DNA of 64,000 nt from a virus (IMGVR_UViG_3300037470_000126:1-64000); one strand, 5' to 3'. Shown: positions 23,331 to 36,566, counted from the first letter of the stretch. A program made the numbers and translations. The notes: generated by a model not told the origin, from the letters alone.

Positions 23331-23373
23331 AGAAAGCCCCGTCTCCTCGATCACTCAAGGAGCGGGGCTCTCT
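23331..23373 (-). terminator. Intrinsic terminator
   Basis: AGCCCCG / CGGGGCT stem with flanking pyrimidine runs, between convergent genes. Confidence 0.65.
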
Positions 23374-23393
23374 GCTGTCTGCTGGTGTGGAAC

Positions 23394-23654
23394 TTAGACT
23401 CCCATCATGCCGGGGTCGTGGTTGTGGTGCCAGTCCATCGGGTCGAGTTCGTGAGCCAGAGCGAGGTGACCCGCAGCCAGCTCCTTGTCGTGGAGACCCA
23501 TCATCACCTTGTCGGCAGCCTCGTTCATCAGGTCACGGATGCACTGGGGGCACAGCGGGTCATCCTCGACGCTGTCCGGCGCGATAACCTCAACCCGACC
23601 GCAACGGGTGCACGGGACAGTGTTGGTGAGCTGGGCGTGAAGGTCGTCGGTCAT
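23394..23654 (-). CDS. Cassette protein, hypothetical with CxxC pairs
   Basis: AAGGAG RBS; CTRC...CPQC. Confidence 0.75.
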   Translation of the reverse strand: MTDDLHAQLTNTVPCTRCGRVEVIAPDSVEDDPLCPQCIRDLMNEAADKVMMGLHDKELAAGHLALAHELDPMDWHHNHDPGMMGV

Positions 23655-23689
23655 GGCGGTGAGCTCCTTTGCTCTCGACTACACGGACG

Positions 23690-23718
23690 ACGTTACGCCT
23701 GTCGTCGGAACGTGTCAA
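23690..23718 (-). promoter_or_regulatory. Array promoter
   Basis: TTGACA-N17-TAACGT. Confidence 0.85.
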
Positions 23719-23770
23719 GCGCTGAGACCGAGGCGCTGTATGCCCGCCTAAGCGACTGACCCCCGCCGAG

Positions 23771-23784
23771 GATACCCGGGTATC
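23771..23784. promoter_or_regulatory. Palindromic operator (perfect copy)
   Basis: GATACCCGGGTATC, a perfect 14-bp palindrome. Confidence 0.8.
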
Positions 23785-23958
23785 TACGGGCCAGCTAGCG
23801 GCGCTTAGAAGCGAAAAGCTCTGTGCGCTCCTCTCGGCGCCTCTCAGACGCTCGCCGAAGAGAGACACGCGCGACGTACTGAGAGCTCCTTAGAAGCGCG
23901 TACAGGCGCCCTAACGCACGTATTGCGCGCTCTCGATCGCTCACACTCGCAGACATGC

Positions 23959-23988
23959 GAAAAGGCGCCCCTCTCGGGACGCCCTCTC
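23959..23988 (-). terminator. Intrinsic terminator
   Basis: GGCGCCC/GGGACGCC imperfect stem with a TTTTC tail on the minus strand. Confidence 0.5.
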
Positions 23989-24001
23989 TAATCGGGTCGA
24001 G

Positions 24002-25387
24002 TCACTCCGCGGCGGGCAGTTCGTCAACGATGGCGCAGCGGGTGAGCTGGGTGGACTTCATGCCCTCCCACTCCTTGTGCGCCTTCACGGAACCCTTGAT
24101 CACGTAGCGGGCGCCGATCTCCTCGCCCAGGGTGTCGTTCGAGGCGAACCACTTAACGACGTTGCCCTCCTCTGTGATCATGGTGTAGAGGGTGGTGCTG
24201 CCGTAGTCGCTGTCCAGGTACTTGATGGCCTTGATTTCAACGGTCAGCGTCTCGCGGCTGCCCTTCACACCCGCTGCCTTGTCAGGCGCGGTACCGATGA
24301 ACTCAGAGGCGGCGTACACGCTGGCCTCACGCTCACGGATCAACGTGCGCTCCAGGTGCTTGGCCCAAGCCTGCGGGGCAGAGGCGAGGAGGCCGATGTT
24401 GCGAGCGGAGACCATCTTGCCTGCGGCAACAGCCTTCATGTTCAGGACGTAGTCAGACGAGCCGGAGAAGTCGTCGGACAGGATGAACGCGAGAAGCTGG
24501 GCAGCCTTGTCGGCAGCCTCGTCGGCAAGCGGGGCGATCTTCGCGGCCCACTCGCGGTCGTGCTTGCTCTTGCTCGGCGAGAGGGCGGTCATAACGTCGC
24601 CCTTCGTGGTGTTGCCGTAAGAGCTGGCGGGCTTGAACCCTTCAAGCTTCACGCAGGCCCAGGCAACGGCGAGGACGGTCAGCGGGTTGTACTCACGCTC
24701 ACCGGCTCCCCCGAAGAACGAACCCTCCTCGTCGTCGTCTCCGGACAGCTCGGGGAAGGCAATGGTCGTGTACTGCCCGGTGAAGTCCTTCAGGCAAGAG
24801 CTACCGACCTGGAGCATCTCGCCGGACTCCTGGTTGCGTACGACGTAGGTCACGAGGCGCTGGCGCGTAGTGCGGCAGTGGTCGCACCAGCCTTCGGTCA
24901 CGGAGTCGCGGTTCACGCCCTCGACACCCGGGACGGAGCGCACGATCAGGCCAGCGTTCGCGTCCCAATCAAGCTTGGCGATGAACTCCCACCCGTTGTA
25001 CGCGGGGGCGTTGCCGGTGATCTCGACCTTGTACTCGGTCCAGGTCTCGGTGATCTTGGTGAGTTCGTTGGTCTCGGTGACCTCGACCTCTTCGACGCTC
25101 ATGGACAGCGTGCCGGCGAGGCCCTTACGCTCGGCGCGGGCGTTGATCTTGTTCAGCTTCTCCTGGGTGGCGAGGAGCTGGAAGTGGTCGATGCGAGCGC
25201 TCATGGCGATCTCGCGGACGGTCACGTCGGTGACAGCCTGGATGGTGTGGGACGGGGTGACGGGCGTCTGGATCTCGGTGGCGAGCGGCTTAACAACGGG
25301 AGCGGAGACACCCTTCGCGGCGGCCTTGCGGCACGCGGCACGCGCGCTCTTGGTCTTCGGGTGGGTGCAGTTCGCGTGGGCGCTCAT
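24002..25387 (-). CDS. Cassette protein: N-terminal HCHC module, central Zn ribbon, C-terminal OB-fold-like domain
   Basis: MSAHANCTHPKTKSARAACR; WCDHCRTTRQR...QVGSSCLKDF; beta-rich C-terminus ending KGSVKAHKEWEG.KSTQLTRC. Confidence 0.85.
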   Translation of the reverse strand: MSAHANCTHPKTKSARAACRKAAAKGVSAPVVKPLATEIQTPVTPSHTIQAVTDVTVREIAMSARIDHFQLLATQEKLNKINARAERKGLAGTLSMSVEEVEVTETNELTKITETWTEYKVEITGNAPAYNGWEFIAKLDWDANAGLIVRSVPGVEGVNRDSVTEGWCDHCRTTRQRLVTYVVRNQESGEMLQVGSSCLKDFTGQYTTIAFPELSGDDDEEGSFFGGAGEREYNPLTVLAVAWACVKLEGFKPASSYGNTTKGDVMTALSPSKSKHDREWAAKIAPLADEAADKAAQLLAFILSDDFSGSSDYVLNMKAVAAGKMVSARNIGLLASAPQAWAKHLERTLIREREASVYAASEFIGTAPDKAAGVKGSRETLTVEIKAIKYLDSDYGSTTLYTMITEEGNVVKWFASNDTLGEEIGARYVIKGSVKAHKEWEGMKSTQLTRCAIVDELPAAE

Positions 25388-25425
25388 GTCGGGCTCCTCG
25401 TCTCGTCGTGTTCTCTCTTGAGAGA

Positions 25426-25454
25426 AGCTTACCAAGTGAAACCGCACGATGCAA
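25426..25454 (-). promoter_or_regulatory. Array promoter
   Basis: TTGCAT-N17-TAAGCT. Confidence 0.8.
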
Positions 25455-25507
25455 GGCGGGAGCGAAAGTCGTGTGCGCCCATCTCACGGCGCTATCCGTG
25501 CCCGAGG

Positions 25508-25521
25508 AATGCCGGGTATCC
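25508..25521. promoter_or_regulatory. Operator copy
   Basis: AATGCCGGGTATCC. Confidence 0.7.
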
Positions 25522-25608
25522 GCCCCTCCCGATCAAGCGTCACACGCCCGTACAGAGCCTTGGGCCGTACCACACCCAACGTGTGTGCCGGCAAGCTAGC
25601 CCGTCCAC

Positions 25609-25636
25609 GAGAAAGGGCCCCGTAGGGCCCCTCTCT
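25609..25636 (-). terminator. Intrinsic terminator
   Basis: AGGGCCC-CGTA-GGGCCCCT stem with a TTTCTC tail on the minus strand. Confidence 0.7.
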
Positions 25637-25655
25637 GCTACTCTCTCGCCCCCTC

Positions 25656-26087
25656 TCAGTCGGCGAGGCGGATGTTCCCCGTCAGGTAGTCGCTGGACGA
25701 GTACAGCGCGCGCTGGACGGCGCTCTCGGCGTTGGGGTCGATCTGGAAGGCGATGCGCCACAGGCGCTTGCCGGGCTGGCTCTTGCTGTCCTGGACATAG
25801 TCAAGCTGGCCGGTGATCTCGCGGAGGACAACACCCTCGGGCAGACGGTGGTCGTCGTACTTGGCCCACCCGGTGACCTTCGTGCCGGCTCGCATCGCAG
25901 CGGACAGCTCCTCGTCGGTCAGGGGGGTGAAGCCGGCGATGGTGCTACGGATCTTGCGGCAGTTGGCACGGGCCTTCTTCGTGCTCTGGTGGTCACACGC
26001 GGCGTGCGAGGTGCCGGCCTTCAGGTACTGCGAGAGGGTCAGGGGGGTCTCGGTGACGGTGGTCTCGGGGGCGGTGTTCTCAGTCAT
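25656..26087 (-). CDS. Cassette protein with HCHC module
   Basis: GAGGAG RBS; SHAACDHQSTKKARANCR. Confidence 0.85.
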   Translation of the reverse strand: MTENTAPETTVTETPLTLSQYLKAGTSHAACDHQSTKKARANCRKIRSTIAGFTPLTDEELSAAMRAGTKVTGWAKYDDHRLPEGVVLREITGQLDYVQDSKSQPGKRLWRIAFQIDPNAESAVQRALYSSSDYLTGNIRLAD

Positions 26088-26116
26088 TGTGTGCTCCTCG
26101 TGTTGTCGTTGGCACG

Positions 26117-26145
26117 ACTCTAGCATGCCCGTGGCGGTCGTCCAA
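26117..26145 (-). promoter_or_regulatory. Array promoter
   Basis: TTGGAC-N17-TAGAGT. Confidence 0.7.
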
Positions 26146-26154
26146 GGGGTGAAT

Positions 26155-26469
26155 TCAGGGGCGCATGTCGTCGGCGAGGATCTCCCACTCGCCCATCAGG
26201 CGGGCGGTCTCGTGGACGAGACGAACGGCGAGGGCAGGGTTCCAGTCGGCGAGGCGGTACCCGTGCTCCTGGGCGACCTCGTCAAGGGTGATGCGGTGGA
26301 TCATGTTCACGCAACCCTCGGCGCGGGCACGACGGACGAACACGAAGGTGTGGTTAACGATCGTGGCGGTGGTCTCCTTCACACGCTCACGCCGGCAAGC
26401 GGAGCGGGCGGCCTTCGTGGCCTCGTGCTGGCAGCGGCTGTGGTCGGTGGTCTTGCGTGTCGTCGTCAT
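26155..26469 (-). CDS. Cassette protein with HCHC module (leaderless)
   Basis: DHSRCQHEATKAARSACR; ATG 6 nt after the -10 box. Confidence 0.85.
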   Translation of the reverse strand: MTTTRKTTDHSRCQHEATKAARSACRRERVKETTATIVNHTFVFVRRARAEGCVNMIHRITLDEVAQEHGYRLADWNPALAVRLVHETARLMGEWEILADDMRP

Positions 26470-26475
26470 GTGACG

Positions 26476-26505
26476 ACCATACACCCTGCCGGCGGTCCCG
26501 CGCAA
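26476..26505 (-). promoter_or_regulatory. Array promoter
   Basis: TTGCGC-N18-TATGGT-N6-ATG. Confidence 0.75.
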
Positions 26506-26556
26506 GGGGAGCCCAGAGGCCGTGTGTGCCCGTCTAACGATGGCAGCGGCACGGAG

Positions 26557-26571
26557 GTATGCCGGGTATCC
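26557..26571. promoter_or_regulatory. Operator copy
   Basis: GTATGCCGGGTATCC. Confidence 0.75.
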
Positions 26572-26610
26572 TCTGTCCCGCGTCGGCTCTCAGAAGCCGG
26601 CTCAGCCACC

Positions 26611-26636
26611 GAGAAACCCGCTTGCGCGGGTTCTCT
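26611..26636 (-). terminator. Intrinsic terminator
   Basis: GAGAAACCCGC-TT-GCGCGGGTTCTC hairpin. Confidence 0.7.
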
Positions 26637-26648
26637 GCTGGGTGCGGC

Positions 26649-26906
26649 TCAGTGGCGGACAGCGGCGATGATCTCTTCCACGTCCTTCGTGTTGTCGTAG
26701 TACCCTTCGATCAGGGCGGAGTCAATGGCTCCCAGACCGAAGATGATCTCATCGGCGTCGGCGCTGTTGTCGTAGTACGAGGCGACGAGGGCGGCGATCT
26801 TCGTGGCGGTCTCAGTGGCACGAGCCTTGCGAGCGGCGCGGCACTTGGCGCGGGCGGTCTTGGTAGCGGGGTGGAGGCAGTCGCTGTGGTTCGTGTTCGT
26901 CTTCAT
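26649..26906 (-). CDS. Cassette protein with HCHC module (leaderless)
   Basis: NHSDCLHPATKTARAKCR; acidic helical C-terminus with a repeated YYDN. Confidence 0.85.
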   Translation of the reverse strand: MKTNTNHSDCLHPATKTARAKCRAARKARATETATKIAALVASYYDNSADADEIIFGLGAIDSALIEGYYDNTKDVEEIIAAVRH

Positions 26907-26912
26907 GTGAGA

Positions 26913-26942
26913 ACAGTACCACGGCCCCACCGGCGAGTGCAA
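26913..26942 (-). promoter_or_regulatory. Array promoter
   Basis: TTGCAC-N18-TACTGT-N6-ATG. Confidence 0.75.
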
Positions 26943-27010
26943 GGGCACAACGCGAGAAAGGGCCTCTCCCCTTTCGAGAAAGACCCTCGCTCTTATGTGG
27001 ATTCAGGCTG

Positions 27011-27376
27011 TCAGGCCTCGACAGTCTCCGCGTAGGTGCAGGAGATGGTGGTGCGCTTGGTCTTGCCCTCGTCGTTCACGTAGTTGATCCACTGCTTACC
27101 CCACCCGGAGATCTTGACGCCGGTGGCGACCTCGGACTCCTCGTCGTCGGTCAGGCGAACAGCGATGCGGACGGGGGTCTCGCGGAACTCCCTCCAGTTC
27201 TCAGCGGTAACGCGCACCGGCTCGAACACGGGGGCGGGAGTCTCGATGGTGGTAACACCCTCGGCGGCAACGGTGGAGAGCATGTCGGCGAACTTGGCGC
27301 GGCTCCGACGGCACTGGGCACGGGCGGCCTTCGTGCTGACGTGCTCGCAGTTCGCGTGGCTCTGGATCTTGGACAT
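27011..27376 (-). CDS. Cassette protein with HCHC module and a small beta-barrel-like domain
   Basis: SHANCEHVSTKAARAQCR; GAGGAG RBS; the C-terminal domain resembles that of 29694-30083. Confidence 0.85.
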   Translation of the reverse strand: MSKIQSHANCEHVSTKAARAQCRRSRAKFADMLSTVAAEGVTTIETPAPVFEPVRVTAENWREFRETPVRIAVRLTDDEESEVATGVKISGWGKQWINYVNDEGKTKRTTISCTYAETVEA

Positions 27377-27417
27377 TCTGTGCTCCTCGGTTCGTGTCGT
27401 TCTTGCTTACAGGGATA

Positions 27418-27446
27418 ACACTACGCACTCAGCGCCGGGCCGTCAA
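27418..27446 (-). promoter_or_regulatory. Array promoter
   Basis: TTGACG-N17-TAGTGT, followed by GTAAGCAAGA. Confidence 0.85.
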
Positions 27447-27576
27447 GGCCAGCTCACGGTTTCTTTCAAGATTCTTTAGGTTGCCACAATCCCTGCTACA
27501 GAAAGGCTCTGTGCGCTCGCCAGTGAGCCGGCACCCTCTCCCCGGAGGTACCGGCTCGGCTGACCCTGCTAAGCGC

Positions 27577-27831
27577 TTACGCGCCGGCGTGAGGGTTGAG
27601 AAGGCGCTCCATGAGCCGGTTGGTCAGCTCACGCGCCACCTCCTGCTCGGTGACGGCGTAGACACGAGACGCGGCAGCGTGGAGCTCCGCTACGTCCCAC
27701 ACCTCCCCGAACTTCTGATCCATCGTGGCGTCGGAGAACTCCTTGACCACTGCCGTCATCGGCTCGTGGATCAAGGGGACCAGCTCGGTGATCAGTTCAT
27801 CTAGGCGGCGGGATTGATCGGCAGAGAACAT
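27577..27831 (-). CDS. Cassette protein, helical hypothetical
   Basis: AAGGGAG RBS; own promoter; 84 aa. Confidence 0.75.
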   Translation of the reverse strand: MFSADQSRRLDELITELVPLIHEPMTAVVKEFSDATMDQKFGEVWDVAELHAAASRVYAVTEQEVARELTNRLMERLLNPHAGA

Positions 27832-27869
27832 GGCACACTCCCTTGTGTACGTTCGGTTCCTACTCGACT

Positions 27870-27898
27870 ACAGTACCGCGGTGAGAGACAGATCACAA
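27870..27898 (-). promoter_or_regulatory. Array promoter
   Basis: TTGTGA-N17-TACTGT. Confidence 0.65.
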
Positions 27899-27974
27899 GG
27901 GGGCGCACAGGGGGCGCACGGAGCACGAGGGGCGCACGCACACACGGCCGTCTGACGGCCTCAGTGTCCGCGGT

Positions 27975-27989
27975 GGGTACCCGGCATAC
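27975..27989. promoter_or_regulatory. Operator copy (inverted)
   Basis: GGGTACCCGGCATAC, the reverse complement of GTATGCCGGGTACCC. Confidence 0.7.
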
Positions 27990-28070
27990 CTCCGCCTCGT
28001 TCAGGCTCTCAGAAGCCCGTACAGGCTTGATCGGCAGATCTCAATATGGCAACGTTGCCAGCTCCCAAAC

Positions 28071-28107
28071 GAGGAAGCCCCTCCCTCTTTCGAGGTCGGG
28101 GCCTTCC
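28071..28107 (-). terminator. Intrinsic terminator
   Basis: GGAAGCCCC / GGGGCCTTCC stem. Confidence 0.55.
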
Positions 28108-28119
28108 CTAACAGTTTGG

Positions 28120-28428
28120 TTACTCGGCGGCGCGGGCCTTGCGGCAGATCGCGCGGTCCTTCTTGGTCTTCGGGTGCTTGCACGCTGCGTGGCTGGTGTG
28201 GGACTTGGCGATCCCGTTGGAGTGACCCTTCGCCGGCGGCGTGGTCTCAGGGTCGGGGGCACCCTGGCAGATCAGGCAGTCATCCTGGGCACCCTCGGTC
28301 TCGTGGCTCTCGTCACTGTGGGTGTTCTCGTGACCCTGGTAGTCGTAGCAGGCTTCGCAGATGTTGCCCTCAAGCAGGTCGGAGGAGACGGGGCGGAAGG
28401 TGCAGTAGGTGCAAAGCTTGCGAGCCAT
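28120..28428 (-). CDS. Cys/His-rich cassette protein with a C-terminal HCHC module
   Basis: CTYC, CEAC, H..H, CLIC, then SHAACKHPKTKKDRAICR. Confidence 0.85.
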   Translation of the reverse strand: MARKLCTYCTFRPVSSDLLEGNICEACYDYQGHENTHSDESHETEGAQDDCLICQGAPDPETTPPAKGHSNGIAKSHTSHAACKHPKTKKDRAICRKARAAE

Positions 28429-28474
28429 TTGGATCACTCTCTCTGGTTGGTGTTGCTCTGTGCTGATAGATAGA

Positions 28475-28503
28475 ACATTACACGGGTCCAGTGGCTAGCG
28501 CAA
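28475..28503 (-). promoter_or_regulatory. Array promoter
   Basis: TTGCGC-N17-TAATGT. Confidence 0.75.
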
Positions 28504-28577
28504 GGCCTGGCAACGTTGTCATTGAAAAAATCTTGAGGAGGCCTGTACGGCGATCTGACGCCGGCAGCCTCTCGCCG

Positions 28578-28592
28578 GTATGCCGGGTATCC
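28578..28592. promoter_or_regulatory. Operator copy
   Basis: GTATGCCGGGTATCC. Confidence 0.75.
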
Positions 28593-28683
28593 GGCGGCAC
28601 CGCTGGGCTCTTAGGCGGGCTCTCAGAGCCTCGCTCATGCGAGTGCCCCCGCCCTCTCACGAGGACGGAGGCTCTCTGATCGG

Positions 28684-29079
28684 TCAGGCGTTACGCTGGC
28701 GACGGCACGCGGCTCGTGCGCTCTTGGTCGCGGCGTGATCACACTCGGCGTGAGCGCCACGCACACCCACGACCTTCATCTCCTTGACGACAGGTGCGGC
28801 AGCGGCCTTCTTGGCGGTCTTCTTCGCAGCCGGCGACGCCTTGTCCAGAGCCTCCGTGCAGCGGCTCTCGGGGTGGATCTGACGCTGGCGGGCGTCAAGC
28901 TCCCAGCCTCCCGTGATCTCGAAGCCACAGAGGCCACAGAGGGGGTTGCAGCGGTAGCAACGGCCGTTCTCGTCAACCTCGCACACGGTGTCGAGGCAAC
29001 AAGTGGTCTCGCCGTCCTCGTCGGTCTCGGGGTCGATGGTCTGGCAGGTGGTGCAGTGCTTGGACATCGGGTCGAACAT
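28684..29079 (-). CDS. Cys-rich cassette protein with a C-terminal HCHC module
   Basis: CTTC, CC, CYRC, CGLC, then AHAECDHAATKSARAACR; AAGGAG RBS. Confidence 0.85.
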   Translation of the reverse strand: MFDPMSKHCTTCQTIDPETDEDGETTCCLDTVCEVDENGRCYRCNPLCGLCGFEITGGWELDARQRQIHPESRCTEALDKASPAAKKTAKKAAAAPVVKEMKVVGVRGAHAECDHAATKSARAACRRQRNA

Positions 29080-29118
29080 CTGAGGCTCCTTGCTCGCTCG
29101 GTCTTGCTTACGAGTAGA

Positions 29119-29147
29119 ACACTACGGCATACGTGGGACCGTGTCAA
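29119..29147 (-). promoter_or_regulatory. Array promoter
   Basis: TTGACA-N17-TAGTGT, followed by GTAAGCAAGA. Confidence 0.9.
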
Positions 29148-29187: not shown

Positions 29188-29223
29188 GAAAACCCCGTCT
29201 CACTAGTGAGAGCGGGGTTCTCT
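29188..29223 (-). terminator. Intrinsic terminator
   Basis: AACCCCG-TCTCAC-TA-GTGAGA-GCGGGGTT hairpin. Confidence 0.7.
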
Positions 29224-29238
29224 GCCAGGGTCAATATG

Positions 29239-29376
29239 TCAGTATGAGCAGTTCTCGCAGGTCCCGTCCTCCTCCAGGTGCGTCTCACAGGTCGAGCAGA
29301 AGTGGATCTCATCGCGGCAGATCTCGATCGGGCAGCCGACCAGACCCTCAAGTGACATTTCGATCTCGAAGTCCAT
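29239..29376 (-). CDS. 45-aa acidic Cys-rich cassette peptide
   Basis: AAGGGAG RBS, own promoter and terminator; MDFEIEMSLEGLVGCPIEICRDEIHFCSTCETHLEEDGTCENCSY*. Confidence 0.8.
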   Translation of the reverse strand: MDFEIEMSLEGLVGCPIEICRDEIHFCSTCETHLEEDGTCENCSY

Positions 29377-29417
29377 TGTCTTCTCCCTTGTTTCGCTCTC
29401 TCTTGCTTACATGGACT

Positions 29418-29446
29418 ACTTTACGCGACTGACCCGGGGCCGTCAA
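29418..29446 (-). promoter_or_regulatory. Array promoter
   Basis: TTGACG-N17-TAAAGT, followed by GTAAGCAAGA. Confidence 0.85.
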
Positions 29447-29638: not shown

Positions 29639-29677
29639 GAAAGCCCGAGAGACTGTCTTAGCTCTCTCGGGCTCTCT
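29639..29677 (-). terminator. Intrinsic terminator
   Basis: AGCCCGAGAGA / TCTCTCGGGCT stem. Confidence 0.7.
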
Positions 29678-29693
29678 AATCGTGCTGGGCAGT

Positions 29694-30083: not shown

Positions 30084-30133
30084 TTGGATCATTCCTTCGG
30101 TTGGTGTTGCGCTCTGTTGTGCTGACATGGATA

Positions 30134-30162
30134 ACACTACGGCACTCCGCGTGCTCCGTCAA
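30134..30162 (-). promoter_or_regulatory. Array promoter
   Basis: TTGACG-N17-TAGTGT. Confidence 0.85.
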
Positions 30163-30237
30163 GGCGAGAACGAGGTTTTCTCCAAGATCTTTTAGAAACC
30201 TCTCTGTGGCCTTCTAAGCGCCTCAGCCCGTGCCTCG

Positions 30238-30252
30238 GTATGCCGGGTATCC
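30238..30252. promoter_or_regulatory. Operator copy
   Basis: GTATGCCGGGTATCC. Confidence 0.75.
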
Positions 30253-30348
30253 TCTGTCCCGCGTCGTCCGCGAGAGAGCCGCACAGGGCCTCGTTCCATA
30301 CGAGTGCCCTCACCCTCTTTCGAGGGCAAGGGCTCTCTTCTCTCAGTC

Positions 30349-30528
30349 TCAGAAGATCCAGTTCCAGATCTTGACGTGCACGGACTTGATCATGTCCCAG
30401 ACGACGGAGAACACGGCGGCAACCCCGTCAAACCCGAGAATGGTGATCGTGGTCAGGATAACGGCGATCACGAGAATGATCATCGCACCCGAGAACCCGT
30501 CTGTGTCGCGCTGGGGGTGGTTCATCAT
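30349..30528 (-). CDS. 59-aa membrane cassette protein
   Basis: AGGGAG RBS; MMNHPQRDTDGFSGAMIILVIAVILTTITILGFDGVAAVFSVVWDMIKSVHVKIWNWIF*. Confidence 0.8.
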   Translation of the reverse strand: MMNHPQRDTDGFSGAMIILVIAVILTTITILGFDGVAAVFSVVWDMIKSVHVKIWNWIF

Positions 30529-30567
30529 CAGAGACTCCCTGCCTCGTTGTTTCTTGCTTACGAAGTA

Positions 30568-30597
30568 AGCTTACCACGCGCCCCGCGCTACATGCAA
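30568..30597 (-). promoter_or_regulatory. Array promoter
   Basis: TTGCAT-N18-TAAGCT, followed by GTAAGCAAGA. Confidence 0.8.
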
Positions 30598-30645
30598 GGG
30601 CGAGAGCTGAATTTCTCAACTCTCGCCCTCGCTCACGTCATCGGA

Positions 30646-30858
30646 TCACTGGTGCTTGGTCGGCGTGATCTTCGCGTCGGGGTGCTCACGCTTGATCTCG
30701 TCGGCGCTCACGGCGCTGTACGTCTGGAGAGTGACAGGCTTGCCGCTCTCGTCCTTGTACGTCACGACGTGCGTGGGACGGTCGATGGACGGCGTACGAT
30801 CGCTGCCGCTCTCGTCACCCTCGCTCTTGCGTCCCTTGATCTTGTCCCAGAGTCCCAT
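30646..30858 (-). CDS. Cassette protein with an amphipathic MGLWDKIKG start
   Basis: GAGAGGG RBS; own promoter; 70 aa. Confidence 0.8.
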   Translation of the reverse strand: MGLWDKIKGRKSEGDESGSDRTPSIDRPTHVVTYKDESGKPVTLQTYSAVSADEIKREHPDAKITPTKHQ

Positions 30859-30894
30859 TAGATCCCTCTCGTCGTTGTTCTTGCTTACGGAGTA

Positions 30895-30923
30895 AGCTTA
30901 CCACTCTGCTCCGCGTCATGCAA
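30895..30923 (-). promoter_or_regulatory. Array promoter
   Basis: TTGCAT-N17-TAAGCT, followed by GTAAGCAAGA. Confidence 0.8.
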
Positions 30924-30977
30924 GGTGGCACGCCGATGAATCCTACGCGGATCTGAGAGCCGCTAGCTAGCCGCACT

Positions 30978-30991
30978 ATACCCGGGTATCC
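30978..30991. promoter_or_regulatory. Operator copy
   Basis: ATACCCGGGTATCC. Confidence 0.75.
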
Positions 30992-31057
30992 GTCGTCCGT
31001 CATCGGCTCGCACACGGGCACACAGAGCCTCGTCCATACGAGGAGGCCCCCGCTCGA

Positions 31058-31080
31058 AGCCGCAAATGGGGGCCTATAAT
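31058..31080 (+). promoter_or_regulatory. Candidate class 2 promoter for the HNH gene
   Basis: AGCCGCAAAT-N7-TATAAT-N7-ATG(31088). Confidence 0.55.
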
Positions 31081-31087
31081 AGATCTC

Positions 31088-31429
31088 ATGCCCATTGGTG
31101 TGCCATGTACTAATCCTGACCATCATCGGAAAAGCAAAAGAGGGAGGTGCCTTGACTGTAGGTATCTACGCATGAAGCCGCGCAATCACTACGGGGACTA
31201 TGTCAAGGGTGCCAAGTGTGAAGTATGCGGTTCAACCGAGAACTTGGGCGTGGATCACGATCACTCGTGCTGCCCCCGTAACGGACGCTCCCGGTCTTGC
31301 GGTGAGTGTGTGAGGGGGACACTATGCCAGAGCTGTAACATGGCTCTGACCTATGATGTCACCCCGGAGATCCTGAGAGCACTAGCGGACTATCTGGAGA
31401 AATACGAGAGCGGCACTACTCCCGAGTAG
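31088..31429 (+). mobile_element. Endonuclease VII-family homing endonuclease, antisense to the array
   Basis: CEVC...VDHDHSCC...CGECVRGTLCQSCNMAL; ILRALADYL C-terminus. Confidence 0.85.
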
Positions 31430-31457
31430 TGCCGCCCCCTCTTCTTGCCGGCTTCGC

Positions 31458-31709
31458 TTAGCCCTTGTTGTTGATCTTCTTCATGTGGTCGAGGATCGTG
31501 TTGGTGATCAAGGTCTCGGCGGCGTTGTAGATCTTGAGGGCGTCGTGGCTGTCGTGATCTTCCACACCCTTCTCGTCGCAACGCGCGATGGCGATGGCAT
31601 CCGCGTAGTCGGCGATCTCGGCGGAGATGGCGTCGATCATCTGATGGGCGATGGCTTCGAGGTTCGCCTCCTTCATGATGTTGTGGATCTTGAGCTGCAT
31701 GGCGTCCAT
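31458..31709 (-). CDS. Cassette protein, helical hypothetical
   Basis: GGGGAG RBS; own promoter. Confidence 0.75.
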   Translation of the reverse strand: MDAMQLKIHNIMKEANLEAIAHQMIDAISAEIADYADAIAIARCDEKGVEDHDSHDALKIYNAAETLITNTILDHMKKINNKG

Positions 31710-31751
31710 CGTGCTCTCCCCTCAGGCCCGTCTCTCGGGCTCACGTCTACG

Positions 31752-31780
31752 ACTATACACGGTGCCGGCTCTCGTGACAA
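31752..31780 (-). promoter_or_regulatory. Array promoter
   Basis: TTGTCA-N17-TATAGT. Confidence 0.85.
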
Positions 31781-31802
31781 GGACGCGCCGGCTCAACCGC
31801 CG

Positions 31803-31841
31803 AGAGAGGGAGTCTCGTGATGCTGTGAGACTCCCTCTCTC
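31803..31841 (-). terminator. Intrinsic terminator
   Basis: AGAGAGGGAGTCTC / GAGACTCCCTCTCT, a 14-bp stem. Confidence 0.75.
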
Positions 31842-31848
31842 TACTCAG

Positions 31849-32133
31849 TCACCCAAGATCGCCGGCGTTGTACGTAGGCTCTTCGCCGGTCTCGTGGACG
31901 TGAAGCTCTTCCGCGTATGCAGCTTCGAGCTTGTCAAGGATCATGCGAAAGATCACGAGTTCAGCGCCTCGCTTAGCCTTCGGGTCCTTGATGTCAGCAG
32001 TAACCTTCTCTGCCTCTCGCTCGATGAAGTTCTCCGCGATGCTTGCCGCACCTTCAGCGCCGATCACGTTGATCATGTGATCGAAAGCCTGTCGCGCTTC
32101 ATCCGTCGTGAGCCTGTTAATGCTCTCGCTCAT
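31849..32133 (-). CDS. Cassette protein, acidic helical hypothetical
   Basis: GAGGGA RBS; 94 aa. Confidence 0.75.
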   Translation of the reverse strand: MSESINRLTTDEARQAFDHMINVIGAEGAASIAENFIEREAEKVTADIKDPKAKRGAELVIFRMILDKLEAAYAEELHVHETGEEPTYNAGDLG

Positions 32134-32201
32134 GTGACTTCCCTCTGTTGAGTTAACAATCGCCTTGCTCTGTGAGCCGGTCTCGCTTGCTCACGAGAAG
32201 A

Positions 32202-32230
32202 ACACTAGCCGGCTACAGCCGGCTTGTCAA
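32202..32230 (-). promoter_or_regulatory. Array promoter (leftward member of a divergent pair)
   Basis: TTGACA-N17-TAGTGT. Confidence 0.9.
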
Positions 32231-32440
32231 CACGTTCACGAGAGAAGTTGAGAAAGCTCTGTGCGTACGTCTGAAGCTCTCTCGCGTCGCTCTCGTCTCT
32301 CAGCACGTACGCGCTCTGTGAAGCGCTCACAGACGCTCTCACACGCGCTCTCGCGTCGCTCTGCTGTCTCTGCTCTGTGTCGAGAACGCGCACGTCAGAG
32401 CACGTCTCAAAAGATCTTGAAACTTTTCCTCGCTACTTCC

Positions 32441-32469
32441 TTGCATCGTAGCGAGGAAGCGCGTAGTGT
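32441..32469 (+). promoter_or_regulatory. Array promoter (rightward member of a divergent pair)
   Basis: TTGCAT-N17-TAGTGT; AAAAGATCTTGAAA upstream. Confidence 0.8.
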
Positions 32470-32516
32470 CTTACTCAGCAGCACAGAACGACGCAAGACA
32501 CGCAAGACAGTACAAC

Positions 32517-32545
32517 TGATCTTTGACAACTCAACAGAGTGTGAA
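32517..32545 (+). promoter_or_regulatory. rrn-like boxA/boxC-like element
   Basis: TGATCTTTGACAACTCAACAGAGTGTGAA in the 5' leader; no -10 box follows the embedded TTGACA at 17-18 nt. Confidence 0.5.
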
Positions 32546-32581
32546 TCGCAAGAAACGACACACAACAACAGGAGTCAGACA

Positions 32582-32842
32582 ATGACGACTAAGCGTTTCT
32601 CTCACGCGAACTGTGCTCACGCTTCCTCGAAGGTAGCGCGTGCGAAGTGCCGGCGTGATCGTGCGAAGTTCGCTCAGATCCTCTCAGACGAGATCTTGAA
32701 CCACGAGATCGAGACTCAGGAGATCATCCCGAACCCGATCATGGATGAAGTGAGCGCCATGATCAACGGCCCGAAGATGCTGGAGATGGGCAAGAAGGGT
32801 CGGGACACGCTTCGCAAGCGTGCCGCGCGTGCCAAGAAGTAA
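32582..32842 (+). CDS. Cassette protein with HCHC module
   Basis: AGGAG RBS; MTTKRFSHANCAHASSKVARAKCR. Confidence 0.85.
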   Translation: MTTKRFSHANCAHASSKVARAKCRRDRAKFAQILSDEILNHEIETQEIIPNPIMDEVSAMINGPKMLEMGKKGRDTLRKRAARAKK

Positions 32843-32848
32843 CTAGTA

Positions 32849-32886
32849 GAGAAGCCCTGAGAGCTAACACAGTCTCAGGGCTTCTC
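32849..32886 (+). terminator. Bidirectional hairpin terminator
   Basis: GAGAAGCCCTGAGA / TCTCAGGGCTTCTC, a perfect 14-bp stem. Confidence 0.75.
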
Positions 32887-33042
32887 GGCGTTCTCTGACG
32901 CTCTCGCGTATGCGACTCGACACAGAGCACACGAGACGCGCGTTAGGCGATTACACGCGCTCTCAGGAGCTCTCACATACGTAAGAGAGCGAGAGACATA
33001 CACGCTCTGTCTCTCGCTCCCTATCACGCGCTCACGTCATTC

Positions 33043-33312
33043 TCAGACGTTGATACCCGGGATCCCGCTCCAGTGCTCGCTCTCGATGCCGACGGCACTC
33101 GGGTCTACTTGCCAGTAACCCTCGCAGCCGATCACCACGACCAGCTCACCCCGGGCAGCGTCGAACAGGATCCAGTGATCGGCAGCGCCGAAGTCTTCCC
33201 CGATCACTCCCTCGCACTCCGTGCACTTCGTGGTGGTCAGGATCTCGTTCGTCCCGCTCTTGAGCGCGTCATCCACCACGCTCAAGTAAATGAGTGTACG
33301 GGCGTCTCCCAT
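33043..33312 (-). CDS. Cassette protein, hypothetical with C-x2-C...H...C
   Basis: GAGGGAG RBS; own promoter. Confidence 0.75.
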   Translation of the reverse strand: MGDARTLIYLSVVDDALKSGTNEILTTTKCTECEGVIGEDFGAADHWILFDAARGELVVVIGCEGYWQVDPSAVGIESEHWSGIPGINV

Positions 33313-33350
33313 GTTCTCTCCCTCGTGTTCTGTACGGGCTTACAACGAGA

Positions 33351-33379
33351 ACACTACGCCCCGCGCTACACCATGTCAA
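33351..33379 (-). promoter_or_regulatory. Array promoter
   Basis: TTGACA-N17-TAGTGT. Confidence 0.9.
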
Positions 33380-33578
33380 GGACGCCGGCACAGCCACCAA
33401 AAAACCCCCGAGACACGGCCGATCTAGCGACTCTTGGTCTCAGGGGCTTCTGGCGTGGCTGTCTGGCATCTGGCTAAGGAGACGACAACTCCCCCACACT
33501 CACAACGGGCGCGGCTGTAGCACTAACTGCCCCAGGCATTACCACGCGACCTAACTAACGTGGCACCACTTACTTAAA

Positions 33579-33644
33579 GGCTCGGCGGGTTGGGCAAGGA
33601 CGCCCAGATAGCATGTGGAAGCGATCTCCCCTACCCACCGAACC
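33579..33644 (-). ncRNA. Candidate structured small RNA (long terminal stem)
   Basis: GGTTCGGTGGGT pairs with ACCCGCCGAGCC (with GU pairs); starts immediately 3' of the tRNA-Ile-like gene. Confidence 0.4.
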
Positions 33645-33647
33645 TAG

Positions 33648-33721
33648 TCCCGCCAACTGGACTTGAACCAGTGACCTCGGCTTTATCAGAGCCGCGCTCT
33701 TACCAACTGAGCTACGTAAGC
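33648..33721 (-). tRNA. tRNA-Ile(GAT)-like gene with a mismatched acceptor stem
   Basis: Intact D arm (GCTC/GAGC), anticodon arm CGGCT-CTGATAA-AGCCG and T arm ACTGG-TTCAAGT-CCAGT; the acceptor GCTTACG/TGGCGGG has three mismatches. Confidence 0.75.
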
Positions 33722-33725
33722 AGGT

Positions 33726-33807
33726 GTCGCCCCTAGGTCTCCATTTATTCCCCGGCTGGGGAGACTCCACGCAGTGCCGGGCCAGATGTTCCCGATGTCA
33801 GGGCGAC
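33726..33807 (-). ncRNA. Candidate structured small RNA between the two tRNAs
   Basis: GTCGCCCT/AGGGGCGAC closing stem, internal GTCTCC/GGAGAC helix and CCCC-AGCC-GGGG hairpin. Confidence 0.4.
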
Positions 33808-33822
33808 TGGGGAACCAACGCG

Positions 33823-33896
33823 TACCCACGGAGGGATTTGAACCCCCAACCTTTCGGACCTAAACCGAACGCCTCTCCCAATTGGGCTACGCGGGC
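33823..33896 (-). tRNA. tRNA-Leu(TAG) with a short variable loop
   Basis: Acceptor GCCCGCG/CGTGGGT, 3-bp D stem, TTCGG-TTTAGGT-CCGAA, T arm GGGGG-TTCAAAT-CCCTC, discriminator A73; CCA not encoded. Confidence 0.85.
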
Positions 33897-33909
33897 TTAA
33901 ACAATATCT

Positions 33910-33932
33910 CGCTATGGAGTTCTCAATGAACG
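33910..33932 (-). promoter_or_regulatory. rrn-like boxA antitermination element upstream of the tRNA cluster
   Basis: CGTTCATTGAGAACTCCATAGCG, close to the Streptomyces rrn leader CGTTCCTTGAGAACTCAACAGCG (reference recalled from memory). Confidence 0.65.
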
Positions 33933-34039
33933 GGGCTTCCTTAGCCCCCTCCCCACATGGACGATACGGGGAGGGGACCGGCAAGGAGCGTCAGGTTCGG
34001 ACTGACAAGAAGAACAGTACAGACCGTCACGAGAGTCTG

Positions 34040-34252
34040 TCAACCCTCTACTTTCTTAGTGCGGGTTACGGGCTGCCGCTTAGCCTTCCAGGACTTGAAC
34101 CCCTTGATCGCCGCGGCCTCGTCTCGGTCGCTGAACATGTACCGCTTGCCCGTGCCAGGGTTGTTCCACGAGGGCACCGCTCGCAAGAAGCGACGGAACT
34201 CCTTCGGGTCCAGGTCGTTGTCTCGGGCTACCTGCGCTCCACTCTTTGCCAT
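34040..34252 (-). CDS. Small basic putative DNA-binding protein
   Basis: DPKEFRRFLR...PGTGKRYMF; a similar domain occurs in 34317-35081 and 35688-36461. Confidence 0.75.
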   Translation of the reverse strand: MAKSGAQVARDNDLDPKEFRRFLRAVPSWNNPGTGKRYMFSDRDEAAAIKGFKSWKAKRQPVTRTKKVEG

Positions 34253-34273
34253 GACTCGCTCCCTCGGTTTACG

Positions 34274-34306
34274 AGGGGTGTGGAAGAGTCACGTCCCACA
34301 CCCCCC
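34274..34306 (-). terminator. Hairpin terminator
   Basis: AGGGGTGTGG / CCACACCCCCT stem. Confidence 0.6.
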
Positions 34307-34316
34307 TGATAGATGC

Positions 34317-35081
34317 TCAGTGCGTGGCGTTCCAGGCTGCCACGATCTTCTTTACGTCCTCTGCGGTGAAGACGTAAGAGCCTCCGGCGCTCTGCTGGAA
34401 GTTGCGACCTACGGCCCACTTACGAAGCCACGCACGGAAGTTCTTTGCCGGCACACCCATCGCGGCTGCGACCTCAGGCGCTGAGAACGTCTTAGGAGCG
34501 CTCTCGTCAGTCGATGCGAGAGTCTGTGCCGGCGCTGCCTGCGAGGCGCTTACAGGAGCGCTCACGCGCTTCTCGGGCATACTCACGACGACCGGAGCGA
34601 CTGTGTCAACGAACGTGATAGCCGCGGCGGCGATCCTCTCGTCTTTCGGCAGGTAAGAGAGGCCCTTCCAGCACGGCGGGCAGTAGTAGAAACGGCCACC
34701 CGTGGGAGCCTTCGGCTTGCGGTGCTTGGAGTAGCGCTTCCCGCACGAGTGCTCGGCGACCCAGCGGCCTTCGGGCATGTCAGCCTCAGTGCACGGCTTG
34801 GGATCCACCACGCCCAACTGGATCGCGACTGCCTGCCACTCGGGACCGTGCTTGGCTCCCGGCGTCAGGGCGTGGGCAATCTCGTGCCGGCACGTCTGCT
34901 CCACGTGCTCACGGTCGTGGCGGTCGACGTACGCGACGGACAGGAGGAGTTCCTTAGGGCCGTACTTGCACAGGCCCAGGGTCCTCATGCGATTCATCCA
35001 AGCGAACCGCCATCCCTGCTCCCACAGACCGTACTCCTTGATTAGGTGGGTCATCATCTGTGCGGCTTCTTCTCTATTCAT
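34317..35081 (-). CDS. SprT-like metalloprotease with a C-terminal putative DNA-binding domain
   Basis: RTLGLC; HEIAHAL...HGPEW (HExxH); CGKRY..CPPC; C-terminal APEVAAAMGVPAKNFRAWLR. Confidence 0.88.
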   Translation of the reverse strand: MNREEAAQMMTHLIKEYGLWEQGWRFAWMNRMRTLGLCKYGPKELLLSVAYVDRHDREHVEQTCRHEIAHALTPGAKHGPEWQAVAIQLGVVDPKPCTEADMPEGRWVAEHSCGKRYSKHRKPKAPTGGRFYYCPPCWKGLSYLPKDERIAAAAITFVDTVAPVVVSMPEKRVSAPVSASQAAPAQTLASTDESAPKTFSAPEVAAAMGVPAKNFRAWLRKWAVGRNFQQSAGGSYVFTAEDVKKIVAAWNATH

Positions 35082-35088
35082 GTCTCCG

Positions 35089-35118
35089 ACTCTATACCTC
35101 GTGGTGCCGCACTGTCAA
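35089..35118 (-). promoter_or_regulatory. Array promoter, leaderless
   Basis: TTGACA-N18-TAGAGT-N7-ATG. Confidence 0.75.
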
Positions 35119-35144
35119 CCCGCACGCATCAAGGAGTTTCCAGC

Positions 35145-35184
35145 GAAAAGCCCCGGGAGTGTGACGGCTCCCGGGGCCTCTCTA
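35145..35184 (-). terminator. Intrinsic terminator
   Basis: GCCCCGGGAG / CTCCCGGGGC stem with a TTTTC tail on the minus strand. Confidence 0.75.
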
Positions 35185-35193
35185 CTCCCGACA

Positions 35194-35529
35194 CTACGGC
35201 CGGCAGACCAACTTGCCGATCGGCTCGTGGCCCGTGGCGATGCGCACGTTCCGACGCGCGACCTGGGCGAGAGCGGCCAGCGTCTCCGTCTCGGAGAACC
35301 ACTGGTTCTTGAAGACCAGCCACTCGGCCGGCGGACGGTGGGGGTTGTCGGCGCTCCACGCCTCGTCGGGCGTGTTGATCGCGGCCCACTGGTCGGGGGT
35401 GCAGTCCTCGCCGCTCAGGTGCTCAGCCATGCGACGCTCCGCCTGGTCACGGAGCCACCAGAGCATCTCCAGGTTGCCGGACTTACGCCCGAAGGCCTTG
35501 GTCACGCGGACGGTCTCGACAATCTCCAC
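35194..35529 (-). CDS. Cassette protein, Trp-rich hypothetical
   Basis: GAGGAG RBS then GTG at 35529. Confidence 0.75.
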   Translation of the reverse strand: MEIVETVRVTKAFGRKSGNLEMLWWLRDQAERRMAEHLSGEDCTPDQWAAINTPDEAWSADNPHRPPAEWLVFKNQWFSETETLAALAQVARRNVRIATGHEPIGKLVCRP

Positions 35530-35567
35530 GGCATCTCCTCGTGTCGTCGGTCTTACTGACAGGGCTA

Positions 35568-35597
35568 ACGTTACTCTTCCACACCTACCCGTGTCAA
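35568..35597 (-). promoter_or_regulatory. Array promoter
   Basis: TTGACA-N18-TAACGT. Confidence 0.8.
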
Positions 35598-35687
35598 CAC
35601 GTCTCGGGAAGTTTCTCAAGCCGCCAAAGAACCCCTGCACCATCGGTACAGGGGCTCCCTGGGAGGGGTTCACGCCGGCGGCATGAA

Positions 35688-36461
35688 TTACTCGTCGTCG
35701 TCCGAGTCATCCTCGGCGACGTCCGTGGCCTTCTTGCGCGCCGGGGCCTTGCGACGGCTCGTGGTCGTCTTGCGCGCGGCCGGCTTACGAGCGGGCTTCT
35801 TCGGGGCCGGGGCCTCCTCGACCTCGGCCTCCTCCAGCTCCTCGTCGTCCGCGTCGTCCGCGTCATCCTCGTCGGCGGACTCCGACTCGGCCTCCGCAGC
35901 CAGGCGCTCCTTCTCGGCCTTCTTCGCCGCGCGCTTGGCCTCCGCGGTCTCCTTGAGCTTGTCCAGGGCCAGCTTCTGGGCCTCGTCGATCTCGCCGGCC
36001 TTGACCCGCTTGATGATGGCGACCACCTTCGGGTCGTCCACGCCGGTGAAGGAGTAGCGCTTGCCGTCCGCAGCCTCGCCCGGCAGCTCGCCGGCGGCCT
36101 TCATCTTGCGGAGCAGGACACGCAGGCCGCGGCCGTCGTAGCGCTTGCCGGTCTCCTTCTCGATGTGGTCCAGGAGCTCGGCGGTGCCGAACGCCACGTC
36201 ATTGGCCTTCTTCGCCGGCTTCTTGGCAGCGGCCTTCTTGGCGCCGCGCTTGCCCTTGGCCTTCGGGGCCTCGTCCTCTTCCACCTCGTCCTCGTCGGCG
36301 TCCTCGACCTCGTCCAGCTCCAGGTCGTCCAGGTCGTCGCCGGTGCCGGCGATCTCGTTGTCGTCGTCCTCGACCTCGACGCCGTCCTCATCCTCTTCCA
36401 GCTCGAACTCCTCGACCTCTTCCTCAGCGGCCTTGGACTTCGCTCGGGTGCGAGTTGCCAT
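35688..36461 (-). CDS. Acidic/basic low-complexity protein with a central folded domain (nucleoid-associated or DNA-mimic candidate)
   Basis: D/E tracts, AKK/KPARK repeats, core YDGRGLRVLLRKM...GKRYSF. Confidence 0.85.
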   Translation of the reverse strand: MATRTRAKSKAAEEEVEEFELEEDEDGVEVEDDDNEIAGTGDDLDDLELDEVEDADEDEVEEDEAPKAKGKRGAKKAAAKKPAKKANDVAFGTAELLDHIEKETGKRYDGRGLRVLLRKMKAAGELPGEAADGKRYSFTGVDDPKVVAIIKRVKAGEIDEAQKLALDKLKETAEAKRAAKKAEKERLAAEAESESADEDDADDADDEELEEAEVEEAPAPKKPARKPAARKTTTSRRKAPARKKATDVAEDDSDDDE

Positions 36462-36537
36462 GGTGTGTTCCCCTCTCACGGGTAATACGTAGTTGGATGT
36501 TCGAGTCGTGGTGACCTCGTTTGTTGCGACGGAGACA

Positions 36538-36566
36538 ACATTACTTCCTCTCGGCCGATGTGTCAA
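36538..36566 (-). promoter_or_regulatory. Array promoter
   Basis: TTGACA-N17-TAATGT. Confidence 0.9.

Follow-up and report, generated by a model that had tools for sequence, protein, structure and literature searches.

An array of 21 autonomous expression units as the probable accessory early region of a Zukovirus-like phage

Within a 64,000-nucleotide (nt) stretch of viral DNA (IMGVR_UViG_3300037470_000126:1-64000, hereafter the window), positions 23331-36566 hold an array of short genes, nearly all of which are preceded by a promoter-like sequence of their own. The question that this locus raises is what kind of region it is and by which route its units were assembled. The window represents bases 1-64000 of a virus record of 82,368 bp in total, and the genome-wide counts given below cover all 82,368 bp. 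The initial annotation described some 20 self-contained cassettes that might form an immediate-early effector array, act as an RNA polymerase sink and be exchanged in an integron-like fashion. We consider it probable that the region is the accessory early region of a lytic cluster-BR (Zukovirus-like) Streptomyces phage, composed of 21 autonomous units that would be read by the host polymerase and reshaped by homologous exchange. The whole array comprises 21 promoter-led units (20 on the minus strand and one on the plus strand) with 23 protein genes, one transfer RNA (tRNA) and one tRNA-like element.

All 20 promoter coordinates listed in the initial annotation match the promoter pattern. Nineteen of them mark the ends of minus-strand -10 boxes, and coordinate 32441 is where the -35 box of an inverted cassette's plus-strand promoter (32441-32469) begins. 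A 21st promoter, 34043-34014 (-), is located upstream of a tRNA-Leu and the tRNA-like element. The loose pattern TTGNNN-N17/18-TANNNT has 48 matches on both strands of the whole genome; on the minus strand of 23331-36566, 20 were found versus 2.4 expected from the background rate (Poisson P = 2.4e-12). A scoring matrix was built from the 21 sites, which score 9.5-23.9 bits when each is left out in turn. With a cut-off of at least 16 bits, this matrix finds 24 sites genome-wide versus 0.3 per Markov shuffle, and 20 of the 24 are inside the array. The density of sites is hence 21 in 13.2 kb, or 1.6 per kb, and their aligned consensus reads CCTTGAC or CCTTGCA, a spacer of 17-18 nt, and GTAnnGT. 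Generic scans for E. coli-consensus promoters (5 vs 2.7) and for terminators (14 vs 10.9) gave no enrichment, as a consensus of this kind suits neither actinobacterial -10 boxes (TANNNT) nor putative terminators that are poor in T.

Mapping of transcription start sites in Streptomyces coelicolor gave TANNNT as the -10 and NTGACC as the -35 motif, with 30-39 nt as the commonest leader length, 21% of transcripts leaderless and a full -35 box in only 59% of promoters (PMC4895711). The array promoters, all of which have a full -35 box, agree with these data in motif, leader lengths and leaderless share, and on this comparison they are of the host housekeeping type. Moreover, no sigma factor, WhiB protein or single-subunit RNA polymerase was found in the genome, and the phage therefore depends on the host polymerase.

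Downstream of the promoters, the units are built to a common plan. In 14 units, 30-51 nt separate the end of the -10 box from the start codon, which has a GGAG-type site before it. The gap shrinks to 7-8 nt in three others (35089, 26913 and 26476), in agreement with the initial annotation that several units are leaderless, and this layout is kept in the orthologs. Three units have longer leaders (distances of 69, 77 and ~113 nt) and one drives tRNAs. The claim of one short gene per promoter also stands, since 20 of the 21 units hold one gene or only RNA genes; the sole bicistronic unit is that of the SprT-like protease. As for the hairpins said to follow many of the genes, a crude stem count (at least 12 pairs, with G-T pairs and one mismatch allowed) gave a two-fold enrichment only and was replaced by folding of the 60 nt after each stop codon. 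An unusually stable hairpin is then seen after 18 of the 21 protein genes tested: for 17 of the 20 on the minus strand, the 60 nt fold below the 5th percentile of random genome windows (Mann-Whitney P = 1e-10), as do those of the plus-strand cassette. The hairpins have 11-19 pairs, begin 7-25 nt past the stop and are in many cases flanked by AGAGAG and TTCTCG; they would serve as terminators.

The closest cultured relatives of the phage are the Streptomyces phages Zuko and KimJongPhill (genus Zukovirus), with a nucleotide identity of ~77-79% over 20-45% of any region. Both have been assigned to actinobacteriophage cluster BR (PMC10690885). The counterpart of the array in Zuko is genes 84-117, every one of which is on the minus strand. 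Homologues of two array proteins are present on many metagenomic contigs of ~80 kb, and the comparison covers 12 arrays: that of the present phage, those of Zuko and KimJongPhill, and those of nine fetched metagenomic contigs. IMG/VR yielded only one further relative (3300033412_000006), nearly a copy of KimJongPhill, with contig ends that fall within the array; promoter repeats are the probable cause of such assembly breaks. Each of the 11 related arrays has 12-22 promoter matches on the array strand versus 0-3 on the other, so that the predicted architecture is conserved in all 12 genomes. Gene order follows a conserved, mostly fixed backbone. Content, on the other hand, differs between arrays in units as a whole: for several genes of this phage, only 0-5 of the 11 relatives have a counterpart, and the relatives in turn hold units absent here. 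Whole units have been gained and lost, one has been relocated and inverted, one slot carries alternative cargo, and one promoter is a hybrid. Orthologs are 40-89% identical across the 12 genomes, and the cargo is therefore under selection.

Where the arrays differ, five cases locate the exchange, with junctions at the predicted promoters and in a coding module. The first is the hybrid promoter 30923-30895, the upstream 58 nt of which match, at 92% and 85% identity, the promoter of a gene that this phage does not have, while the segment from -10 to +22 is 84-97% identical to other promoters (the 97% being to a different KimJongPhill promoter) and the open reading frame (ORF) that follows comes from a third family. 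Two cassettes are missing exactly at this promoter, and the deletion slot is occupied by an endonuclease VII gene; relatives carry two or three other cassettes there. A second case is the cassette for a 45-residue protein (unit 12 below), which lies forward between two HCHC genes (see below) in six genomes including this one, and inverted beside a glycosyltransferase operon in three (Zuko and the relatives L021 and L022). When the two contexts are compared, homology sets in 2-15 nt before the -35 box in three pairings and stops where the ORF ends or slightly short of it; in the remaining pairing (L023), the ORF alone is homologous. Genomes that carry the cassette in the same context are homologous over the full 1,058 nt compared. 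A third case concerns the position immediately downstream of one gene, which is taken by either of two unrelated gene families behind similar promoters, and in one genome by the two together. Fourth, Zuko gp88 is a chimera: its head corresponds to one gene of this phage and its body to the adjacent gene, with the joint in the HCHC module. Finally, the promoter spacer represents sequence that is unconstrained by the consensus, and 17-nt spacers are at least 88% identical before unrelated ORFs in at least 25 pairs versus 0.15 expected, although these pairs are not independent and reduce to ~5-6 events.

In addition, intact endonuclease VII genes are present in antisense orientation at three different inter-cassette positions in three genomes: this phage, KimJongPhill (L009, ~10784-11113) and L021 (7431-7787). 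The KimJongPhill copy is mostly within a gap annotated as intergenic between genes 101 and 102. The gene looks like a roaming homing-type nuclease.

Together, these data are consistent with the following model. Each unit would consist of a housekeeping-type promoter, a leader of ~30-45 nt with GGAG or no leader, one small ORF, and a GC-rich hairpin that insulates the next unit. Host RNA polymerase with its primary sigma factor would read every unit upon DNA entry, with no need for a phage factor. Because each gene would be transcriptionally independent, the loss, gain or relocation of one would have no polar effects. The repeated promoter, leader and HCHC-module coding sequence would provide short homologies, at which homologous recombination could delete, duplicate, invert and recombine units, possibly with the help of the roaming endonuclease VII gene.

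Several points, besides the small number of independent spacer events, weigh against this model. Promoter activity, early timing, terminator function and the role of the cargo are inferred from the sequence alone. Long T runs occur in few of the hairpins, and most hairpins may stabilise RNA rather than terminate transcription. Four equally strong promoters of the same type lie outside the array, in a second leftward block (window positions 622 and 3162; genome positions 78373 and 81960). They also qualify the contrast drawn in the initial annotation between the array and an otherwise operonic genome, which is supported by abutting ORFs in the window and by the annotation of Zuko. The relatives are only 75-82% identical, so that base-level mapping fails for most junctions, and the events are old. 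Gene order is largely conserved. For the proposal that plug-in units are exchanged at shared regulatory sequence, this means that exchange is backed by the hybrid promoter, the moved and inverted cassette, the shared spacers and the alternative cargo, while the idea of free plug-in is weakened. Because order is largely fixed across the 12 genomes, turnover as judged from their sequences is slow and local. Lastly, two kinds of extra box suggest an added layer of regulation outside the model, and these lead to the first of the alternatives.

The boxes are found in subsets of the units. Seven palindromes (23770-23785, 25506-25521, 26556-26571, 27969-27984, 28577-28592, 30237-30252 and 30976-30991) are located 51-75 nt upstream of seven -35 boxes; the perfect form, GGATACCCGGGTATCC, occurs in relatives, and the core is CCGGGTATCC, a 10-mer whose six exact copies in the window are all inside the array. 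A second motif, GTAAGCAAGA, has five exact copies at a constant distance from the -10 box, at the predicted transcript start of five units. An A/T-rich box of the AAGAATCTTGAAAG type accompanies about eight promoters. The palindromes and the start motif, together with a helix-turn-helix-like gene within the array, raise the possibility that the array is not immediate-early, and that a phage DNA-binding protein instead switches the units through one or the other of these elements. Yet the palindrome accompanies only a third of the promoters, and on sequence grounds the core promoters would need no activator. The window also has no antisense copy of the shared leader motif, and an antisense RNA directed against that motif was rejected on this ground. 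We regard a regulated array as unlikely to be the better account.

The second alternative concerns the origin of the repetition. Nine of the 23 array proteins are paralogs that share an HCHC module (H-x2-C-x-H-x9-C), N-terminal in seven and C-terminal in two, and tandem duplication therefore accounts for much of the repetition in the array. Neighbouring promoters and leaders are paralogous as well, and order is mostly fixed, as would be expected if the array were a relic of tandem copies of one HCHC cassette that diverged with no continuing modular exchange. Thirteen promoter-led units, however, carry unrelated cargo, including the tRNAs and the SprT-like protease, and duplication alone cannot yield a hybrid promoter, a cassette in a new place and on the other strand, or alternative cargo in one slot. 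As a full explanation, we find a duplication relic decidedly doubtful. The same repeats invite a more far-reaching version of exchange, in which shared promoter, leader and N-terminal HCHC sequence would act as an in-frame recombination adapter of ~100-150 bp. Exchange inside it would join new C-terminal domains to a shared head for expression and targeting, and the array as a whole would amount to a self-shuffling effector library directed at one host target, with the endonuclease VII gene supplying the breaks. This proposal is speculative, and we think it unlikely.

Third, the RNA polymerase sink raised in the initial annotation would, as a full explanation, mean that the array was selected to titrate host holoenzyme from host genes, with the cargo being secondary. 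The presence of 21 near-consensus promoters in 13 kb, every one with the full -35 box seen in only 59% of host promoters, speaks in its favour. A decoy would need neither terminators nor ribosome sites, however, and the array ORFs keep a strong third-position GC bias; together with the conservation of the orthologs, which indicates selection on the cargo, this makes a sink improbable as the reason for the array. The weakest alternative, an integron-like platform in which a site-specific recombinase captures and excises cassettes at conserved flanking sites, has the cassette-like look, conserved non-coding borders and variable cargo in its favour, but we give it almost no credence: the lack of an integrase noted for the window extends to the whole 82-kb genome, where neither a tyrosine recombinase (PF00589; 14 of 14 control genomes were positive) nor a serine recombinase (PF00239) was found, every cassette has its own promoter, unlike integron cassettes, and the junctions map to the promoter core or its edge and to the coding module, which fits homologous exchange.

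Having retained homologous exchange among autonomous, host-read units as the preferred explanation, we describe the units in order of transcription; they are on the minus strand unless stated otherwise. The array begins at a divergent, poorly coding region of ~540 bp (36567-37109), beyond which glycan and structural genes run the opposite way. This region separates the first array promoter from the first gene that runs rightward; it has no convincing ORF and several right-facing promoter-like sites. Unit 1 (35624-36566; promoter 36566-36538) encodes a 257-residue protein with acidic tails and a Lys/Ala-rich basic centre (ORF 36461-35688; phrog_16498, no assigned function), followed by a hairpin at 35662-35624. 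The 111-residue protein of unit 2 (35145-35597; promoter 35597-35568, ORF 35529-35194) has no counterpart in the 11 other arrays, and its hairpin (35182-35145) has a T run. The bicistronic unit 3 (34040-35118) starts from the leaderless promoter 35118-35089 and contains the SprT-like metalloprotease gene (35081-34317; PF10263, E = 4.7e-10), a hairpin (34306-34273), and the gene for a 70-residue basic protein (34252-34040) whose relatives are annotated as helix-turn-helix. A motif that runs roughly short helix, LRxxLRK, GKRY-F, D/E is common to this basic protein (34040-34252), the C-terminal part of the SprT-like protease (34317-34500) and the centre of the 257-residue protein (~35880-36180), all on the minus strand; a weak 36% match between the first two is also seen in a relative.

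Unit 4 (33397-34043) is the RNA unit. Its promoter (34043-34014) overlaps the stop codon of the preceding gene and is followed by tRNA-Leu (33896-33822), the tRNA-like element (33721-33651) and a putative terminator formed by a hairpin and T6 (33446-33397). The element at 33651-33721 is a tRNA by Rfam (51 bits) but not by ARAGORN, with GAT (Ile) in the anticodon loop and unpaired acceptor stem ends, and may be a decayed tRNA. Unit 5 (32984-33379) has its promoter at 33379-33351, an ORF for 89 residues at 33312-33043 and a hairpin at 33022-32984. The inverted unit 6 (32441-32889, plus strand) encodes an 86-residue HCHC-family protein (32582-32842) behind promoter 32441-32469 and a leader of ~106 nt, with a hairpin at 32846-32889; the relative L024 holds the same inverted copy. 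Back to back with it is unit 7 (31802-32230; promoter 32230-32202, ORF 32133-31849 for 94 residues, hairpin 31841-31802). The spacer between these two promoters (32230-32441) contains GAGAGC and GCGCG words and direct repeats (family D17).

Unit 8 (31406-31780) has promoter 31780-31752 and an ORF for 83 residues (31709-31458), and its 15-bp hairpin (31439-31406) is shared with the converging endonuclease VII gene. This gene is free-standing and antisense to the array (31088-31429, plus strand); it encodes 113 residues and matches PF02945 (E = 5.9e-11) and the endonuclease VII PHROG. In unit 9 (30594-30923), the hybrid promoter (30923-30895) precedes an ORF for 70 residues (30858-30646) and a hairpin (30632-30594) that overlaps the -35 box of the next promoter. 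Unit 10 (30302-30597; promoter 30597-30568) encodes a hydrophobic protein of 59 residues (30528-30349), the Zuko homologue of which is annotated as a membrane protein, and has its hairpin at 30337-30302. Unit 11 (29639-30162; promoter 30162-30134, hairpin 29676-29639) encodes an HCHC protein of 129 residues (30083-29694). The mobile unit 12 (29188-29446; promoter 29446-29418, hairpin 29222-29188) encodes the 45-residue protein, with six Cys (29376-29239).

Unit 13 (28641-29147; promoter 29147-29119, ORF 29079-28684, hairpin 28676-28641) encodes 131 residues with a Cys-rich N-terminus and a C-terminal HCHC module, which is also C-terminal in the 102-residue protein of unit 14 (28064-28503; promoter 28503-28475, ORF 28428-28120, hairpin 28094-28064). 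Unit 15 (27525-27898; promoter 27898-27870, ORF 27831-27577 for 84 residues, hairpin 27557-27525) is present in four of the 11 relatives. Units 16 to 19 each encode an HCHC protein. Unit 16 (26954-27446) has an A/T-rich box upstream of its promoter (27446-27418), an ORF for 121 residues (27376-27011) and a hairpin at 26992-26954. Units 17 and 18 have leaderless promoters: the former (26610-26942; promoter 26942-26913, ORF 26906-26649, hairpin 26637-26610) encodes 85 residues, and the latter (26155-26505; promoter 26505-26476, ORF 26469-26155) encodes 104 residues and has no hairpin, the next promoter following directly. The 143-residue protein of unit 19 (25606-26145; promoter 26145-26117, ORF 26087-25656, hairpin 25637-25606) is chimeric relative to Zuko gp88. 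Unit 20 (23959-25454; promoter 25454-25426, hairpin 23988-23959) encodes the 461-residue protein (25387-24002), with an N-terminal HCHC module and a predicted C-terminal OB-fold-like barrel. Unit 21 (23331-23718; promoter 23718-23690, ORF 23654-23394 for 86 residues) closes the array with a 19-bp hairpin (23373-23331) facing a converging plus-strand operon.

Pfam and PHROGs name only the SprT-like protease and endonuclease VII, leaving 21 of the 23 array proteins with no functional annotation. For the HCHC family, a sequence search against solved structures gave 0 hits, and the protein atlas gave weak small-barrel matches only. The model of the 461-residue protein (predicted local distance difference test score 78.7) places a barrel at the C-terminus and a second Cys cluster near residues 168-198. 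The modelled barrel compares to a middling degree with OB-fold single-strand-binding domains (Z up to 8.5, root-mean-square deviation ~3 Å over ~85 residues). Relatives of this protein, 380-690 residues long, are found on phage-sized contigs of ~100 kb and in Streptomyces genomes.

With respect to its position, the array was considered as the genome end that enters the cell first, and this candidate was dropped. The Zuko record opens with the start codon (ATG) of gene 1, and both Zuko "ends" are crossed without interruption in the present genome, which suggests a permuted arrangement in which these ends are a convention of the record. Because the present genome crosses them unbroken, the array is, as far as these data go, not demonstrably at a physical terminus. 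Elsewhere in the genome, two near-identical copies of ~135 nt lie ~1 kb apart, at 560-690 of the window and 81900-82030 of the genome (both minus strand). Each consists of a strong array-type promoter and then sequence that looks structured rather than coding, and the pair may be a duplicated small-RNA unit.

The array also provides material for further work. Some 65 aligned natural Streptomyces-type promoters, with leaders and hairpins, and ~130 more matrix hits in metagenomic relatives are candidate expression parts. The 23 compact genes, most of them lacking annotation, are candidates for host-takeover and counter-defence screens in Zuko and KimJongPhill.

How does the array compare with known systems? 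Integron arrays likewise line up single-gene cassettes whose content varies between conserved non-coding borders; here, in contrast, there is no integrase, the 21 units have 21 promoters of their own, and the junctions fit homologous recombination. The temperate Streptomyces phage phiC31 has an early region with similar promoters of a non-housekeeping type and conserved inverted repeats that are bound by a repressor. A family of similar early promoters with a repeated palindromic box nearby is common to both as a likeness of layout; the present phage differs in its lack of an integrase and in its housekeeping-like promoters.

The host-takeover module of phage SPO1 reportedly comprises ~12 operons (Stewart et al. 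1998). It lies in the terminal redundancy, is organised as operons and contains 20-26 small genes in ~12-13 kb, with strong host-sigma promoters and ribosome sites (PMC6873191). The array shares with it the small genes behind strong host-type promoters and GGAG sites, set apart from replication and structural operons. It differs in its single-gene or RNA-only units and in having no evident terminal position. SPO1, moreover, switches to its own sigma factors, while no sigma factor was found in this phage, and shut-off of the host has been demonstrated for SPO1 and would be no more than a candidate function of the array.

The nearest parallel is provided by the promoter-early stem-loop (PeSL) cassettes in the hyperplastic regions of T4-type phages (Arbiol et al. 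2010, PMC2839356; Comeau et al. 2014, PMC4122927). In both, repeated early promoters of the host sigma-70 type and stem-loops separate small genes of unassigned function that are concentrated in a plastic region, relatives differ by insertions, deletions and replacements with junctions at the repeated regulatory motifs, and some -35 boxes have an A/T-rich stretch upstream. The lineages are unrelated, however, the present phage being a siphovirus of an actinobacterium with 60-70% GC. Here, the hairpin stands apart, following the stop codon at 20-250 nt from the next promoter, whereas in PeSL cassettes it forms part of the promoter. Within the promoter segments, no such stem-loop was found, as they fold like their shuffles (mean z -0.19, P 0.21), and a PeSL-like placement is seen at two promoters only: 30597-30568, with a hairpin over the -35 box, and 32230-32202, with a hairpin in the spacer. 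Gene order is also far more conserved here, a third of the cargo belongs to one paralog family, and there are extra boxes, namely the palindrome and the shared transcript start. With its stem-loops outside the promoters and its unrelated lineage, the array is, on its sequence, not a PeSL family member in the strict sense, although it works like PeSL regions. Such an array was undescribed for cluster BR; the principle is not new, and what the array adds is that the link between promoter-terminator cassettes and modular shuffling, seen in T4-type coliphages, reaches high-GC actinobacterial siphoviruses.

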